From contig JAZDKB010000039.1 of NCBI GenBank assembly GCA_043803405.1, positions 1-51,307 on the forward strand: 51,307 nucleotides of DNA, given 5' to 3'. Position 1 is the stretch's first letter; every line of letters starts with the position of its first letter. Positions 42,125 to 51,196 of this stretch are shown here, piece after piece. Source of the stretch: Spirochaetota bacterium (GTDB taxonomy: Bacteria > Spirochaetota > UBA4802 > JAFGDQ01). The position numbers and the translations under genes were made by a program. The notes below the pieces were generated by a model. It was not told the origin of the DNA and made no database searches. It saw nothing but the letters and a program-made list of their open reading frames with translations.

Positions 42125-42288
42125 CTAGTGCTTAGACCGTATGATCTTGAATTAAAAATATTTTAAATCTTGCCACAGAGTCACAGAGATACTGAGTTTT
42201 TTTATTATAAAAATAATTAATTTATCTTCTCTGTGACTCCGTGTCTCTGTGGCAAATTCAATTTGAATTTATACAGTCAAGACACTAG
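42125..42288. mobile_element. 164-bp MITE-like element bounded by CTAG
   Basis: Imperfect terminal inverted repeats CTAGTGCTTAGACCGTAT / ATACAGTCAAGACACTAG; internal inverted repeat TTGCCACAGAGTCACAGAG / CTCCGTGTCTCTGTGGCAA; left end recurs at 17751-17795. Confidence 0.6.
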
Positions 42289-42444: not shown

Positions 42445-42549
42445 ATGTTAAATAATAAATACAAAATATTTATTTTGTCTCATTGAGAGATTTATCGGGA
42501 GCCCGTGCGGTTTCCCTTAATGCATCTTACCGCCTTACTCACGCCCTAG
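42445..42549 (+). CDS. Putative Sec-containing leader peptide 1: MLNNKYKIFILSH-U-EIYREPVRFPLMHLTALLTP
   Basis: In-frame TGA 42484-42486; SECIS-like hairpin 42497-42516; 20 more codons to TAG; same layout in copies 2 and 3. Confidence 0.7.
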
Positions 42550-42623
42550 TGCCTCAGCTCACCTCCTGAGATACCGGCGCCGAAAAAGGCGGCCGGATTT
42601 TTAATATCTTAAGGAGGTTTTAA
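42484..42623 (+). promoter_or_regulatory. Attenuator-like structured leader, copy 1
   Basis: SECIS-like hairpin; CTCAG/CTGAG hairpin; anti-SD ACCTCCT 42561-42567; GC hairpin 42574-42596; SD AAGGAGGT 42611-42618. Confidence 0.8.
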
Positions 42624-43169
42624 ATGTTAAACAATTTAAAAAATTCAATATCGTCCAAACGGACGAAATGCGCTTCAGTTATCACGCTTTTTATAGTAAT
42701 AGCGTTCGTGCTTGCAGGATGCGCATCATTCCCGCCTTACGGCACATCCACAAAAGGCCTTGAACTGCCTATTGAAAAGGCGACTCTTAAGTTCATGGAG
42801 GATGTAAAAGCCGGCGGATACAAGATCGTAAATACAAGCGAGCTGAAGAAATGGTATGCCGAAGGCAAAAAGATGATCGTCATCAGCACGTTTCCGCCGG
42901 CGGACGACAAAGCATTGGGTACTCTTCCCTCTGCTGTAAGCGGCCCTATGCCTATGACGGAAAAAGAAGTTACCCAGGCAGTGAAGGACGGCATAATTAA
43001 GACAGCAGGCAAAGATAAGGATATGACTATTGTTGTGTATTGCGGTTTTGTGGCCTGCAGAAGGAGCCATCTGGGAGCAAAGACGCTCGCGGAAAGCGGA
43101 TATAAAAATGTTTACCGCTATCCTGGAGGCATTGCGGGCTGGAAGGAAGCATCTGCTCCTGCAAAATAA
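42624..43169 (+). CDS. Rhodanese-domain lipoprotein (sulfur/selenium transferase-like)
   Basis: Lipobox LAGC; IVVYCGFVACRRSH; VYRYPGGIAGWK. Confidence 0.88.
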   Translation: MLNNLKNSISSKRTKCASVITLFIVIAFVLAGCASFPPYGTSTKGLELPIEKATLKFMEDVKAGGYKIVNTSELKKWYAEGKKMIVISTFPPADDKALGTLPSAVSGPMPMTEKEVTQAVKDGIIKTAGKDKDMTIVVYCGFVACRRSHLGAKTLAESGYKNVYRYPGGIAGWKEASAPAK

Positions 43170-43187
43170 TTATTGAAAATATATTTG

Positions 43188-43222
43188 TGCCGGATAGACC
43201 GCTTTATGCGGTTTATCCGGCA
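43188..43222. terminator. Long hairpin after the rhodanese gene
   Basis: TGCCGGATAGACCGC-tttat-GCGGTTTATCCGGCA. Confidence 0.6.
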
Positions 43223-43232
43223 TTATGCAACC

Positions 43233-43691
43233 ATGAAGAAATTACAAATATCTCTTTCTTTTATATTGGTTTTTCTAGCTGTGTGTTGCGCCGGAAAACA
43301 GATAGAAGATGATAAGATAAAAAGACAAATAGATGTCTTTGGCGTTTATCTCTCTTCCAGTGTTGAGTATAAAGAAATTAACGGCGACCCTGCGGTTGAG
43401 GAATCGTGCTCATGTTCCGATGGATATGATCTCAATTTTGATGTACTTGATATAACAATCGGATATACGGCAAACAAAAAAATAAGAAAGATCACTACAT
43501 ATAATCCGGGTACAAGCATGTTCGGCATACGGCCGGGCATGTCTTTCAGCAGCAGCAGGCAAAAGATACTTGATGCTGGATTTAGCGAATCCGGCCGGTC
43601 TTTTATGTTCACTAACGGCAGGTATTTAGTTACTTTTCTTGTTGAGAAGAAGGATGATATTTTCGGGCTGATTATTGAAACGGCCGAATAA
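43233..43691 (+). CDS. Hypothetical exported/lipoprotein
   Basis: MKKLQISLSFILVFLAVCC signal; start moved from TTG 43173 to ATG 43233. Confidence 0.6.
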   Translation: MKKLQISLSFILVFLAVCCAGKQIEDDKIKRQIDVFGVYLSSSVEYKEINGDPAVEESCSCSDGYDLNFDVLDITIGYTANKKIRKITTYNPGTSMFGIRPGMSFSSSRQKILDAGFSESGRSFMFTNGRYLVTFLVEKKDDIFGLIIETAE

Positions 43692-43727
43692 AATTATATT
43701 TAAAGTTAAATTAAAAACAAAAACACG

Positions 43728-43835
43728 ATGTTAACAAAACAAAAAATCAAAATATTTATCGCGTTACAGTGAGCAACGCTTAGGAAGCCGGTGCGGCTTC
43801 CTAATATTGTCCTAACCGCCATAACTACGCCTTAA
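43728..43835 (+). CDS. Putative Sec-containing leader peptide 2: MLTKQKIKIFIALQ-U-ATLRKPVRLPNIVLTAITTP
   Basis: In-frame TGA 43770-43772; perfect hairpin 43780-43804; 20 more codons to TAA. Confidence 0.7.
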
Positions 43836-43912
43836 AACCTCAGTCAACCTCCTGAGATTCCGGCGCCTAAGCAGGCGGTCGGGATTTTAATATCATAAGG
43901 AGGTATTCAATT
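43770..43912 (+). promoter_or_regulatory. Attenuator-like structured leader, copy 2
   Basis: Same motif order as copy 1; anti-SD 43847-43853; SD 43897-43904. Confidence 0.8.
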
Positions 43913-44057
43913 ACTAAACAATCAAGAAGTTTGTTATCGGGCTGTAAATCCGTACGGCTACTATACGCTTTTTCCAGTGATATAATCTACAGGGAAGATT
44001 ATATTATGGCAAAGATTAATAATAATTTTATTATAAAATGAATTACAGGAGAGTAAA

Positions 44058-46754
44058 ATGAGTGATACCTTTATATTAAACGGAGAAGAAACGCCATTTA
44101 AGCAGGGTCAGATGATTCTGGAAGCGGCGCAAAATGCCGGAATCAAAATACCTACTTTATGCTATCTGAAAGGAACTACGCCTACCGGCGCATGCAGGGT
44201 TTGCCTGGTAGAAGTCAAAGGCGCGCGTTCGCTGATGGCATCATGTTCCACTCCGGTTACACCGGGGATGGAAGTAAGGACGGATAGCGGTCTTGTCCAT
44301 AGAGCGCGAAAAATGAATATTGAACTGCTGCTTGCCGGCGGCAGGCATAATTGTCTTGTCTGTGAAGCAAATGGCGATTGCCACCTGCAGGATCTGGCAT
44401 ATTCCTATAAAATCACCAATTTACGATTTAAAGAAAAAGAACGAAACAATATTTATCCGACAGAGGATCAAAACTCTTTCATTATCCGTGATTTTGGACG
44501 TTGTATCCTTTGCGGACGCTGCGTTCAGGCATGTAACGAGCTTGTAGTAAACCGCGCAATCTCGCAAGGCTATCGCGGTTCCGAAAGCAAAATTGTTACA
44601 GGCGGCGATCTGCCGTACGATAACAGCGAATGCGTATTCTGCGGTCAGTGCGTGCAAGTATGTCCTGTCGGAGCGCTGACGGAAAAGAAAGGCAAGGGAC
44701 TGGGACGATCATGGGAAGTCAAAAATGTCCGCACGACGTGTCCTTACTGCGGCGTAGGATGCCAGCAAAACCTTCATGTCAAGGGTGACCAGATAGTAAA
44801 AATTACAGCTGTTGAAGACGGTGCGCCGAACTATGGCAGATTATGCGTTAAAGGACGCTTCGCTTATGATTTCATTTACTCAAAAGACAGACTTACAACT
44901 CCGCTGATTCGTCAGAAAAACGGAGAGTTCAAGGAGGCTTCCTGGGACGAAGCGCTTGACCTTGTAGCGAAAAAATTCACAGAAATAATAAAAGAATCCG
45001 GCCCGGATTCAGTTGCCGGTATCAGCTGCGCTCGCAGTATCAATGAAGATTCTTACAATATGCAAAAGCTGTTCAGAGCCGTTTTCCAGACAAACAATAT
45101 CGACCATTGTGCCCGTGTCTGCCATGCGCCTACAGTCGCAGGTCTTGCAGCATCGTTCGGATCAGGCGCTGGCACCAACTCGATCAGCGAGTATAAAGAT
45201 GCAAAGATGTTCTTCATTATCGGATCGAACATGACAGAAGCTCATCCGGTTGCCTCCTATTATGTAAAGCAGGCAAAATTGAAGGGTGCAAAACTCATTG
45301 TTGTGGATCCCAGATACCACGAACTGGCAAAGATGTCTGATATTTATGCACAGATCAAGGTTGGTTCTGATGTGGCCTTTTTGAACGGCATAATGAATGT
45401 CCTGATAAACGAGAATCTGTACGACAAAAAATTTGTTGCTGATAACTGTACTGGCTTTGAAGATCTTAAAAAGACAGTCATGAATTATACGCCCCAAAAA
45501 GCAGCCGAGATAAGCGGAGTACCTGCTGAACAAATAATCCAGATAGCTCATCAAATGGCTGCCATAAGGCCGTCAATGCTGATTTACACATTGGGAATAA
45601 CGGAGCATTCCTGCGGTACAAACAACGTAATGAGCTGCGCCAATCTCCAGATGCTGCTTGGAAACATGGGCATTGAATTTGGCGGCGTAAACCCGCTTCG
45701 CGGACAGAACAACGTACAGGGCGCCTGCGACATGGGCGCGTTGCCGGTTGTTTTCCCTGGTTATCAGAACGTAACCGTGCCCGAGAACAGAGAAAAATTC
45801 ATAAAGGCATGGGGAGTTAAAAATCTTCCGGACAAGCCGGGATTGATGATAAACGCCATGATGGAAGGATTGCTCACCAAAAAAATACGGGCACTTTGGG
45901 TGTTCGGGGAAAATCTGGCCAATGCAGAGCCGAATATTACCCATACTGAAAAATGCCTGAACTCTGCCGAGTTTTTAGTTGTGCAGGATATTTTTCCAAA
46001 TGAAACGACAAAATTTGCTCATGTAATTCTTCCTGCCGCTGCATGGTGTGAAGACGAAGGAACATTCACAAGCCTGGAAAGGCGCGTAAGCATGGTAAGA
46101 AAGATAAAAGAAGCTCCTGGTATTGCGAAACCGGATTGGTGGATATTCAAGGAAGTCGCCAGGAAGATGGGACATGACTGGGCATCAAACAGCGCACGGG
46201 AAATCTGTGACAATGAACTGGCCGTATTGTGCCCGATGTTTGCAGGAATTAAATTTTCCAGGATTGAAAAGGACGGACTGCAATGGCCGTGTCCCGGCGA
46301 AGAACATCCCGGCACGCCGATTGTTCATAAAGACGGGAAATTCACCCATGGGAAAGGAATAATGAAAGGCATCGAATGGACCCCGCCGGAGGAAATCGCA
46401 GACAAAGATTATCCGTTGGTTTTGAGCACAGGCAGAAGGCTTTCCCAGTATCATACAAGAACGCAGACCGGCCGAAGCGGCATGGATGCTATTTACAGCC
46501 AGGAAACCGCCGATGTTTCCATTGCTGATGCAAGGGAAAAAGGAATAAAAGATGGAGAAATGATTGTCGTGAAATCCAGACGCGGGAAAGTAACTGTTCC
46601 TGCCCGGGTTACAGATGAAGTCCCCAAAGGCGTTGTCTGGATGACATTTCATTACCGCGACGGAAATTGCAACTGGCTTACCAATAATGCGTATGATACT
46701 GTAACAAAGACGCCTGAATACAAGGCCTGCGCGGTACAGATTGAAAGAGTTTAA
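44058..46754 (+). CDS. fdhF: Cytoplasmic Mo/W-bisPGD formate dehydrogenase alpha subunit, Cys-type, with N-terminal Fe-S domains
   Basis: IPTLC, GACRVCLV, CILCGRCV, CPYCGVGC, NIDHCARVCHAP, PLRGQNNVQGACDMG, TPEYKACAV; no Tat signal. Confidence 0.93.
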   Translation: MSDTFILNGEETPFKQGQMILEAAQNAGIKIPTLCYLKGTTPTGACRVCLVEVKGARSLMASCSTPVTPGMEVRTDSGLVHRARKMNIELLLAGGRHNCLVCEANGDCHLQDLAYSYKITNLRFKEKERNNIYPTEDQNSFIIRDFGRCILCGRCVQACNELVVNRAISQGYRGSESKIVTGGDLPYDNSECVFCGQCVQVCPVGALTEKKGKGLGRSWEVKNVRTTCPYCGVGCQQNLHVKGDQIVKITAVEDGAPNYGRLCVKGRFAYDFIYSKDRLTTPLIRQKNGEFKEASWDEALDLVAKKFTEIIKESGPDSVAGISCARSINEDSYNMQKLFRAVFQTNNIDHCARVCHAPTVAGLAASFGSGAGTNSISEYKDAKMFFIIGSNMTEAHPVASYYVKQAKLKGAKLIVVDPRYHELAKMSDIYAQIKVGSDVAFLNGIMNVLINENLYDKKFVADNCTGFEDLKKTVMNYTPQKAAEISGVPAEQIIQIAHQMAAIRPSMLIYTLGITEHSCGTNNVMSCANLQMLLGNMGIEFGGVNPLRGQNNVQGACDMGALPVVFPGYQNVTVPENREKFIKAWGVKNLPDKPGLMINAMMEGLLTKKIRALWVFGENLANAEPNITHTEKCLNSAEFLVVQDIFPNETTKFAHVILPAAAWCEDEGTFTSLERRVSMVRKIKEAPGIAKPDWWIFKEVARKMGHDWASNSAREICDNELAVLCPMFAGIKFSRIEKDGLQWPCPGEEHPGTPIVHKDGKFTHGKGIMKGIEWTPPEEIADKDYPLVLSTGRRLSQYHTRTQTGRSGMDAIYSQETADVSIADAREKGIKDGEMIVVKSRRGKVTVPARVTDEVPKGVVWMTFHYRDGNCNWLTNNAYDTVTKTPEYKACAVQIERV

Positions 46755-46764
46755 TTGAAGCAGC

Positions 46765-46797
46765 AAACCTTCCCGCTGCAAAAAGCGGGAAGGTTTT
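46765..46797 (+). terminator. Rho-independent terminator after fdh
   Basis: AAACCTTCCCGCT-gcaaaa-AGCGGGAAGGTTTT. Confidence 0.75.
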
Positions 46798-46852
46798 ACA
46801 AAATCGAATATATTATATGAGGAGTTAAATCAATTTTAACGTTTAATAAATT

Positions 46853-46960
46853 ATGTTAACCGGACAAAACAACAAAATAATTTTTTCCCAATATTGAGAA
46901 ACAGACCGGAAGCCCGTGTGGTTCCATAATATGTTTCCAGCCGCCTTAACTACGCCATAG
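46853..46960 (+). CDS. Putative Sec-containing leader peptide 3: MLTGQNNKIIFSQY-U-ETDRKPVWFHNMFPAALTTP
   Basis: In-frame TGA 46895-46897; hairpin 46908-46925; 20 more codons to TAG. Confidence 0.7.
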
Positions 46961-47038
46961 AACCTCAGAATACCTCCTGAGATTCCGGCGCCGGAAAAGG
47001 CGGCCGGACTTTTAATATCTTTATGGAGGTTTAAAATG
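46895..47038 (+). promoter_or_regulatory. Attenuator-like structured leader, copy 3
   Basis: Same motif order; anti-SD 46972-46978; GC hairpin 46984-47008; SD GGAGGT 47025-47030. Confidence 0.8.
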
Positions 47039-47152
47039 TTAAACAATCGCAAAAGTTTACTGTCGTGCTGTCGAACCGCACAGTCGCGATTCGTATCTTT
47101 CATTAATATAATGAACAGGGGGATTATGCTATGGAAAACGAACTATTGCTAA
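47036..47152 (+). CDS. 38-aa second uORF overlapping the hdrA start (possible translational coupler)
   Basis: Strong SD + ATG TTA AAC AAT, as at the rhodanese start; ends at TAA 22 nt inside hdrA in another frame. Confidence 0.45.
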   Translation: MLNNRKSLLSCCRTAQSRFVSFINIMNRGIMLWKTNYC

Positions 47153-50350: not shown

Positions 50351-51196
50351 ATGAGTTCAGAAGGTAAATTCACGCCAAAGATGTTAGGTATAATCTGTAA
50401 CTGGTGCTGTTATGGGGGAGCTGACCTATGCGGAGTTTCGCGCTTTCAATATCCTACTTATATTAGATTGATAAGGGTGATGTGCTCAGGCAGGGTTGAC
50501 CTGAAACACATATTTCTTGCTTTTGCGAACGGAGCGGACGCGATGTTTGTCGGCGGATGCCATATTAATGACTGCCATTATAATCCGGAAGGAAATTATG
50601 ACGCGCTTAGTATGGTAAATCTATGCAGGAAATTGCTGGAACACATTGGAATAAACCCGAAACGCTTAAGACTGGAATGGGTATCGGCAGGTGAGGGTAT
50701 CCGTTTCGCAAATATTATGAATGAATTTGCCAAAGAGATTGAGGGTTTGGGGCCTTTGGGCAAAAGCGAAGGAATAGATGCGAATGAATTAAAATCCAGA
50801 GTTGAGGAAATCACAAAGCTCATCCCGTACTTTAAACTGGTAAAAATGAAGGAACTGGCGCTGCATAATCAGGATCAGGAATCGTATACTAAACTTTACA
50901 CAACTGAAGAAGTGGAAAAACTAATCCGCGAAGTACCTGCTTACTATATCGAACCGGAGAAATGCCAGGCATGTATGACCTGTGCCAGAAGATGCCCAGC
51001 AGACGCGATAATAAGCGCAAAGCAGGAAGTGCATATAATAGATCAGGAAAAATGCATAAAATGCGGGACATGCATAGAAGCCTGTCCGCCGAAATTCAAG
51101 GCAATTACAAAGATAGTTGGTGCACCTGTTCCGCCATCACTTCCTGAAGGAAAAAGAGCCGTAATCAGAAAGAGTAAAGAAAAAGAGGTTGCATAA
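50351..51196 (+). CDS. mvhD: MvhD/FlxD (2Fe-2S) subunit fused to a C-terminal 2x[4Fe-4S] ferredoxin
   Basis: CNWCCYGGAD, RVMCSGRVD, GCHINDCHY, WVSAGEG; CQACMTC...CP, CIKCGTC...CP. Confidence 0.9.
   Translation: MSSEGKFTPKMLGIICNWCCYGGADLCGVSRFQYPTYIRLIRVMCSGRVDLKHIFLAFANGADAMFVGGCHINDCHYNPEGNYDALSMVNLCRKLLEHIGINPKRLRLEWVSAGEGIRFANIMNEFAKEIEGLGPLGKSEGIDANELKSRVEEITKLIPYFKLVKMKELALHNQDQESYTKLYTTEEVEKLIREVPAYYIEPEKCQACMTCARRCPADAIISAKQEVHIIDQEKCIKCGTCIEACPPKFKAITKIVGAPVPPSLPEGKRAVIRKSKEKEVA

Follow-up and report, generated by a model that had tools for sequence, protein, structure and literature searches.

A candidate selenocysteine-codon leader with two alternative RNA folds upstream of selenium-free isoenzyme genes in a spirochaete

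In translational attenuation of the ermC/cat type, the position of a ribosome within a leader open reading frame remodels a helix that hides the Shine-Dalgarno (SD) sequence of the next gene, and a drug-stalled ribosome opens that SD. A different arrangement, reportedly found by Thanbichler and Bock in 2002, is an element resembling a selenocysteine insertion sequence (SECIS) in the 5' leader of E. coli selAB, where SelB binding next to the start is said to repress translation with no UGA decoded. Leader-peptide attenuators of amino acid operons (E. coli trpL, hisL and leuL type) have been described, as have an engineered attenuator by Liu et al. that depends on the incorporation of an unnatural amino acid and, in Treponema primitia, the translation-coupled transcription of fdhF(Sec), where Sec denotes selenocysteine (PMC3892789). 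According to the same paper, from 2013, no natural case of attenuation that depends on incorporating a rare amino acid had yet been reported (PMC3892789), and our search of full-text literature, the scope of which did not extend to subscription journals, found no description of a Sec-codon leader or attenuator. Here we analyze a stretch of 51,307 nucleotides (nt) from a Spirochaetota bacterium (contig JAZDKB010000039.1 of assembly GCA_043803405.1; hereafter the window, meaning the whole stretch), which contains three copies of a leader with a short upstream open reading frame (uORF), an in-frame UGA, a SECIS-type hairpin and a downstream region that can adopt two mutually exclusive folds.

We consider each leader to be a trp-like, ribosome-mediated attenuator that would sense the capacity of the cell to insert Sec, and judging from the sequence we put the chance of this at roughly two in three. 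The leaders would probably serve to switch off selenium-free back-up enzymes when Sec can be made. The computation covers the anatomy of the leaders, the presence and conservation of both folds, the open uORF frame, the genes of the Sec machinery and the Sec paralogues; decoding of the UGA as Sec, the direction of the switch and whether it would act by termination or by translational control are inferred.

Leader anatomy, relatives and the two folds

The three window copies are colinear, each ~180 nt long, with 83% column identity among them, and copies 2 and 3 are offset from copy 1 by +1286 and +4411. A fourth copy is present on contig C15, bringing the number in this genome to four. From 5' to 3', each leader consists of an ATG followed by 12–14 codons, the in-frame UGA, a 10-nt spacer, a hairpin with a 7-bp stem and a 5-nt loop, ∼20 further codons and a stop, a second hairpin (H3, CUCAG/CUGAG), a GC hairpin, 4–5 U residues and the SD, GGAGG. 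The anti-SD, ACCUCC, lies within the loop and 3' side of H3.

BLAST and exact-pattern scans recovered few relatives of these leaders. A covariance model (R1) built from 10 sequences returned 26 matches in 18 of the 122 genomes of the order, one of them false and one partial, and it had no match in 134 genomes sampled from the rest of the phylum. The false match (L072, G006:C38) was rejected as having the hairpin and no UGA; the partial one (L066, G006a) was used in the tabulation of uORFs and left out of the fold counts. A pattern scan of metagenomes yielded one new copy (L047) and one duplicate, along with two probable chance hits in GC-rich coding DNA that were dropped (L048 and L049), and a pattern scan of the genome contigs returned only loci already recovered. 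The set studied here is the model's matches minus the false one plus the metagenome copy, 26 leaders in all; they are kin, and counts across them are not independent. No Rfam family matched the leaders at its gathering threshold or at E ≤ 1. In addition, a motif search upstream of 21 further genes for the double-cubane protein DCCP found one divergent leader (in G004) and none for the other 20. This divergent leader (L086), which the covariance model missed, lies ~170 nt upstream of its DCCP gene and consists of 11 codons, a UGA, the hairpin GAAACC-UGUUU-GGUUUC, 20 codons, a stop, and an anti-SD pairing with the SD region.

An in-frame start precedes the UGA in all 26 leaders (ATG in 25 and GTG in one), mostly at a distance of 11–14 codons (16 in G095, which has another ATG at 14), and the frame runs for 17–25 codons after the UGA, with exactly 20 in 20 of the 26. 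Over the 12 codons before and 17 after the UGA, every one of the 26 leaders keeps the uORF frame open, compared with 6 and 13 leaders for the two remaining frames upstream and 11 and 15 downstream. The only indel between UGA and stop among close copies is one of 3 nt. The N-terminus of the encoded peptide is free to vary and conservation is confined to places where the RNA is constrained, namely R-x-P-V-R-x-P, encoded by the SECIS-type hairpin, and the C-terminus, encoded by H1 and H2 (helices of the ON fold described below). Nineteen of the 26 peptides end in proline, which may slow release at the stop, although we conclude nothing from this, as H2 is built from those very bases. A uORF with an in-frame UGA is what a ribosome-mediated attenuator calls for as its leader frame, and its translation is predicted.

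The SECIS-type hairpin is likewise present in 26 of 26 leaders, with its fixed 10-nt spacer, a covarying 7-bp stem and a 5-nt loop in which position 2 is always G. A 2026 study of SECIS elements gives a G at loop position 1 or 2 for 100% of its Sec-type elements (PMC13582414). The SECIS of the fdhA-Sec gene of the same genome also has a 7-bp stem and a 5-nt loop (GGUCU), sharing with the leader hairpin G-U at loop positions 2–3; the leader stem is one nt nearer the UGA. Together with the Sec machinery of the host, the UGA and hairpin have the features expected of a bacterial SECIS (a UGA with a hairpin ~10–13 nt downstream and a G in the loop), so that the leader UGA would be decoded as Sec.

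An earlier note on this DNA, made from the letters alone, had proposed that an OFF fold and an ON fold compete in the region following the UGA, and every pair that it listed for copy 1 is present at the positions it gave (Table 1). In the OFF fold, the helix between anti-SD and SD consists of 6 + 5 pairs around a 1x2 internal loop, and the GC hairpin of 8 pairs and one bulged G; the 4–5 U residues following that hairpin occur in all three window copies. In the ON fold, H1 has 7 pairs, H2 has 4 and H3 has 5. The two folds exclude each other through shared strands, and conservation across 25 related leaders extends to both. The positions given for the 5' strands of the ON fold also hold: in copy 1, the 5' strand of H1 occupies codons −6 to −4 and that of H2 codons −2 to −1, within the last six codons before the stop, and that of H3 lies 4–8 nt past it. 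If a ribosome footprint of ∼−12 to +15 nt around the P site is assumed, a ribosome terminating the uORF would cover these strands in the window copies and most relatives, the stop falling on H2, with H1 just before and H3 just after, in the window copies and in 20 of the 26 leaders.

The ON fold covaries strongly, and the OFF fold is conserved with weaker covariation. The leaders fold better than shuffled sequences (z = −3.6, −4.0 and −3.1 for copies 1, 2 and 3). In the alignment fitted by the covariance model, 92.5% of cells are paired in the ON fold, and 14 of 23 pairs (39 cells) are changed on both sides, a result reached by none of 500 shuffles, with slid controls at most 53.6% paired. In the structure-blind MAFFT alignment of the 3' part, for which the RNAalifold consensus is H1 plus H2 of the ON fold, 85.2% of cells are paired and both partners differ in 9 of 16 pairs (32 cells); none of 500 shuffles matched this number of cells, and slid controls did not exceed 55.3% paired or 7 cells. 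The corresponding paired fractions for the OFF fold are 88.5% (fitted) and 83.4% (blind). At one position of the shared 3' strand, a single lineage has U in place of C, and the bases that pair with it in the two folds went from G to A (ON pair, GC in 18 and AU in 4; OFF pair, GC in 18 and AU in 5), a change that fits a dual constraint and is probably one event.

The compensatory change reported earlier for the outer helix needs restating. Copy 2 does have the strands ACCGCC/GGCGGU, and copy 3 does have GCCGCCUU/AAGGCGGC, with A-U in the former and G-C in the latter at the position concerned, and yet there is no classical double change within the window. Because copy 1 and the fourth copy have an A.C mismatch there, the window differences are two single changes, each of which created a pair. 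True double changes at this helix were found in the relatives, where 6 of the 7 H1 pairs have both-side changes.

At full length, copies 1 and 2 have the OFF fold as their minimum free energy structure, and copy 3 has the ON fold. When each fold was enforced (23 of 25 rows, excluding L065, in which the OFF-model match began elsewhere, and L067, which has no SD), the ON and OFF ensembles were nearly isoenergetic, with a median difference of −0.3 kcal/mol. The reading in the earlier note, two exclusive folds that control the downstream SD, is supported with qualifications: opening the 7-nt SD window costs a median of 2.2 kcal/mol with ON enforced versus 8.0 kcal/mol with the GC hairpin enforced, and OFF is costlier than ON in 21 of 23 rows, but in copy 2 an ATT stands where the start codon would be, and fdhA has its own SD ~150 nt downstream of the leader SD. 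Because no start codon follows its SD, copy 2 would be controlled by termination or polarity and not through the leader SD. In transcripts cut at the 3' arm of the hairpin, the moment of the termination decision, free RNA is ON in 21 of 25 (the G005b row being unusable, with the wrong hairpin picked), and with a ribosome masking the stop the hairpin is kept in 23 of 25, a partly circular count as the stems were defined from the masked fold; unconstrained folding leaves the SD largely paired whatever the state, as discussed below.

Selenocysteine machinery, target genes and surroundings

The genes for tRNA-Sec, SelA and SelB are found together on contig C26 of the same genome. On contig C4 are paralogues of the window's FdhA (73% identity) and HdrA (71% identity) in which an in-frame TGA aligns exactly with a cysteine (Cys) codon of the window genes (U353 and U77), and this leader was not found upstream of either. 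Copy 1 precedes a gene for a rhodanese-domain lipoprotein (a periplasmic rhodanese), copy 2 precedes the Cys-type fdhA, and copy 3 precedes the Cys-type hdrA and then a MvhD/FlpD-like gene. The fourth copy precedes a gene for a 425-aa protein matching the double-cubane structures 6ENO and 7YYL (E ~1e-138), followed by an activase-like partner. All 18 genomes with a leader encode SelA, and the 22 genomes that lack a SelA match yielded no leader.

In all but one case the leader lies directly before a same-strand gene, the exception being a degenerate leader in G017 (1 of 26) with no gene directly after it. That gene encodes DCCP in 15 of 26 (some truncated), an FdhA-type protein in 3, an HdrA-type protein in 3, a yedE-like transporter in 2, and a rhodanese and a DUF169 protein in one each, with some of the fdhA and hdrA assignments based on N-terminal likeness only. 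The two transporter genes (PF04143) follow the 25-codon variant of the leader (L065 in G005 and L066 in G006), and in G006 a TusA/YedF-like gene comes after yedE (G006a being the only locus checked). DCCP behind the leader is truncated, internally deleted or interrupted in L053, L056, L057, L061 and L063 (G056, G071, G105, G069 and G064), with the leader intact. The possibility that DCCP is itself a selenoprotein was rejected, the in-frame TGA in G038 being only its natural stop. Double-cubane proteins are almost confined to genomes with SelD according to a preprint in whose available part leader, attenuat- and regulat- are absent as words (10.1101/2022.07.06.499078). In T. primitia, another spirochaete, selenium limitation raised fdhF(Cys) transcripts, with no mechanism given in the accessible portion of that report (PMC3892789). 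Taken as a group, the targets look like a selenium-starvation set.

Table 1. Positions of the leader parts and adjoining genes in the window
Feature	Position	Strand	Details
Copy 1 uORF	42445..42549	+	ATG, 13 codons, UGA 42484-86, 20 codons, TAG 42547-49
Copy 1 SECIS-type hairpin	42497..42516	+	10-nt spacer after UGA, 7-bp stem, 5-nt loop CGUGC
Copy 1 H1 5' strand CCGCCUU, antiterminator	42530..42536	+	partner 42586-92
Copy 1 H2 5' strand CGCC	42542..42545	+	partner 42576-79, inside 5' arm of GC hairpin
Copy 1 H3 hairpin CUCAG/CUGAG	42553..42570	+	42553-57 with 42566-70; part of anti-SD in loop
Copy 1 anti-SD strand ACCUCCUGAGAU	42561..42572	+	pairs with 42606-42618
Copy 1 GC hairpin CCGGCGCC / GGCGGCCGG	42574..42602	+	42574-42581 with 42588-42596, bulged G, then A + UUUUU (42598-42602); candidate intrinsic terminator
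Copy 1 SD strand and ATG	42606..42626	+	GGAGG 42613-17, ATG 42624; start of rhodanese-like lipoprotein gene 42624-43169
Copy 2 uORF	43728..43835	+	ATG, 14 codons, UGA 43770-72, 20 codons, TAA 43833-35
Copy 2 SECIS-type hairpin	43783-43802	+	
Copy 2 switch	43815..43903	+	H1 ACCGCC 43815-20 with GGCGGU 43874-79; hairpin 43860-67 with 43874-82
Copy 2 switch, 3' part	UUUU 43885-88; SD GGAGG 43899-43903	+	no ATG/GTG/TTG after SD
Copy 3 uORF	46853..46960	+	ATG, 14 codons, UGA 46895-97, 20 codons, TAG 46958-60
Copy 3 SECIS-type hairpin	46908-46927	+	
Copy 3 switch	46940..47038	+	H1 GCCGCCUU 46940-47 with AAGGCGGC 46997-47004; hairpin 46985-92 with 46999-47007
Copy 3 switch, 3' part	UUUU 47010-13; SD 47025-29; ATG 47036	+	38-codon ORF overlapping hdrA start
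Cys-type FdhA, 898 aa	44058..46754	+	Cys354 aligned to U353 of Sec paralogue, contig C4
Cys-type HdrA-like protein, 1031 aa	47131..50226	+	Cys aligned to U77 of Sec paralogue, contig C4
MvhD/FlpD-like gene	50351-51196	+	follows hdrA-like gene

Several further observations concern the surroundings of the leaders. The duplicated unit reaches ~60 nt beyond the SD (42624-42680, 43905-43965 and 47036-47100) and carries the 5' end of the rhodanese gene (ATGTTAAACAAT...); past the SD, this remnant is the 38-codon ORF that overlaps the hdrA start in copy 3, and in copy 2 an ATT has replaced its ATG through decay. Between the alanine dehydrogenase gene and the copy 1 leader there is a long inverted repeat, seen by eye (GCCACAGAGTCACAGAGA ... 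TCTCTGTGACTCCGTGTCTCTGTGGC, ~42172-42256). Downstream of fdhA, a hairpin followed by TTTT (CTTCCCGC-TGCAAAAA-GCGGGAAG, 46771-46798), which is absent from the list of a simple terminator scan, is likely a terminator separating fdhA from the copy 3 leader. Within the Cys-type fdhA, a SECIS-like hairpin lies just after the Cys codon (45115-45169; Rfam SECIS_2, 23.9 bits against a gathering threshold of 70, E 0.24), and it may be a relic of a Sec-containing ancestor or a product of the conserved peptide. On C15 (17666-29373, L002/L076 and beyond), past DCCP and the activase-like gene, there are ORFs resembling, as judged from their N-termini only, a MetNIQ-type ABC transporter, a nitrogenase-like NifB/H/D/K set, a second HGD-D paralogue and a class-V aminotransferase.

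Proposed mechanism and competing explanations

We propose that a ribosome translating the uORF would reach the UGA, followed by its SECIS-type hairpin, and that its fate there would set the fold. Lacking SelB and Sec-tRNA(Sec), it would be released at the UGA, ~45 nt before H1, and the nascent RNA would fold in the order of its synthesis (H3, H2, then H1) into the antiterminator; the GC hairpin would be absent, the SD cheap to open, and the downstream genes ON. Were Sec inserted, the ribosome would read ∼20 further codons to the uORF stop and cover the 5' strands of all three ON helices; formation of the GC hairpin would follow, the U-run of the window copies should end transcription, and the freed anti-SD would pair with the SD in all copies, leaving the genes OFF. 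Selenium supply would in this way turn off the Cys-type FdhA, the Cys-type HdrA with MvhD, and the periplasmic rhodanese, and elsewhere DCCP and yedE/yedF. The mode of control probably differs between copies. In the window genus, a good U-run and the decay, in several copies, of the start codon after the SD point to termination, whereas in several DCCP-linked relatives the absence of a U-run and an SD with the ATG of the gene itself point to SD sequestration.

A number of observations weigh against this proposal. At unconstrained equilibrium, the median probability that the SD is unpaired is 0.10 in free RNA, 0.06 with a ribosome at the UGA and 0.27 with a ribosome at the stop; a thermodynamic SD switch is not supported, and because the SD is mostly paired in all three states, the switch must be kinetic, depending on folding order and the passage of the ribosome. 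In the cut transcripts, the hairpin wins without a ribosome in 3 of 25 (G056, G018 and G071). Covariation in the OFF fold is weak, at 16 cells observed versus 10–14 in slid controls. Owing to the bulges in their stems, the three leader hairpins of the window are missing from the output of a simple terminator scan, and in several relatives (G069, G062, G106, G041 and G027) no U-run follows the hairpin. The uORFs of the window genus have no clear SD before their ATG, and those of G005a, G005b and G006a run 25 codons past the UGA to a stop ~15 nt beyond the H2 5' strand, so that a ribosome at the stop would leave H1 and H2 uncovered. As for the targets, a search of this genome at E ≤ 1e-5 gave no Sec paralogue for the rhodanese, and many DCCP genes of the order are without a leader. 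The co-occurrence with SelA is also weak support because SelA is found in 100 of the 122 genomes.

Four alternatives were weighed. In the first, the hairpin might only bind SelB, with or without Sec-tRNA, and thereby shift the fold, with the uORF past the UGA untranslated. The selAB element of E. coli, reported to work in this manner, would be a precedent, and the hairpin is there in each of the 26 leaders; however, ~13 nt separate it from the closest strand of the switch and ~110 nt from the SD, it has no pairing to H1, and an arrangement of this kind leaves unexplained the fixed 10-nt UGA spacing, the in-frame start and the frame that stays open for 17–25 codons after the UGA (26 of 26), as well as the size of the single indel found there among close copies, 3 nt. 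We regard it as improbable. A slightly smaller chance goes to the same parts working with the opposite sign, read-through turning genes ON, for instance if the anti-SD or the hairpin were melted. In leaders of the G005 type, the uORF stop is 6–15 nt before the anti-SD, so that termination there would hide the anti-SD under the ribosome and leave H1 and H2 free, and the rise in median SD opening with the stop masked (0.27 vs 0.10) is in the direction that this requires. In the window copies and in the 20 leaders whose stop falls on H2, by contrast, the ribosome would remove the antiterminator; moreover, the targets are selenium-free substitutes and selenium-uptake genes, needed when Sec is scarce, and fdhF(Cys) transcripts of T. 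primitia rise under selenium limitation (PMC3892789).

If the uORF were instead a working small selenopeptide, with the hairpin downstream a plain terminator or a structured 5' untranslated region and no switch, then a conserved frame with a proper SECIS would be just what is seen, but not a peptide whose N-terminus varies freely and whose conserved parts coincide with constrained RNA, nor covariation in the ON fold, including a position that covaries with partners in both folds, which is unexpected for a plain terminator; that the leader always stands directly before a same-strand gene is also against it, and we hold this to be very unlikely. Least likely of all is a metabolite-binding riboswitch whose aptamer overlaps a short ORF by chance. 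It would share with the leaders two exclusive folds and an expression platform; the lack of any Rfam match at the thresholds given above and of a conserved multi-helix pocket argues against it, as does the upstream region, where strong conservation is limited to a simple hairpin (7-bp stem, 5-nt loop) whose distance to the invariant in-frame UGA is fixed.

The attenuator reading is the one that we prefer, and with more hesitation we lean toward the wider claim that the leader is a natural recoding-based sensor, in which release versus Sec insertion at the leader UGA would gauge SelB and Sec-tRNA(Sec) and set a selenium-starvation regulon (Cys isoenzymes of formate dehydrogenase and heterodisulfide reductase, rhodanese, YedE/YedF and DCCP). 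A uORF that runs past the UGA into the antiterminator shows how read-through could become a change of fold. To the question of how bacteria choose between Sec enzymes and Cys back-ups, the leader offers a concrete mechanism that would need no protein regulator. The targets define a candidate selenium-starvation regulon and, from the side of regulation, support the connection of double-cubane proteins with selenium that has been reported without an explanation (10.1101/2022.07.06.499078). If the reading is true, DCCP would be assigned to selenium scavenging, and leader-peptide attenuation would be extended to the 21st amino acid and to stop-codon recoding.

Comparison with known systems

Each of the systems introduced at the outset shares some part of the proposed design. 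Like the selAB element, the leaders have a SECIS-type hairpin that would tie expression to the Sec machinery; here, in contrast, the UGA lies in a conserved uORF, the hairpin is far upstream of the regulated SD, and a separate two-fold switch follows. The fdhF(Sec) gene of T. primitia also belongs to a spirochaete; there, too, selenium affects transcript elongation by way of UGA decoding, and the Cys isoenzyme is up when selenium is scarce, but there the UGA and SECIS are inside the selenoprotein gene and Sec supply leads to more transcript, and the available part of that work describes no leader for the Cys gene. In ermC/cat attenuation, as would be the case here, the position of the ribosome in a leader ORF acts on a helix hiding the SD of the next gene, with the difference that drug-induced stalling opens the SD in those systems, whereas read-through would close it in the leaders.

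In the engineered attenuator of Liu et al., stop-codon read-through by a special tRNA decides attenuation, as it would here; theirs is synthetic, and the leader described in this work would be natural. With the trpL, hisL and leuL type, the leaders share a short leader ORF with a sensing codon, exclusive terminator and antiterminator folds between which ribosome position would decide, masking of the antiterminator 5' strand by a ribosome at the leader stop, and a sign in which amino acid supply leads to OFF. They would differ in that the decision is made by release versus Sec insertion at a UGA, through SECIS and SelB, instead of by stalling at a hungry codon, in that the targets are selenium-free substitutes and selenium-acquisition genes and not those of Sec biosynthesis, and in that the OFF state would also hide the SD, with some relatives dispensing with the U-run.

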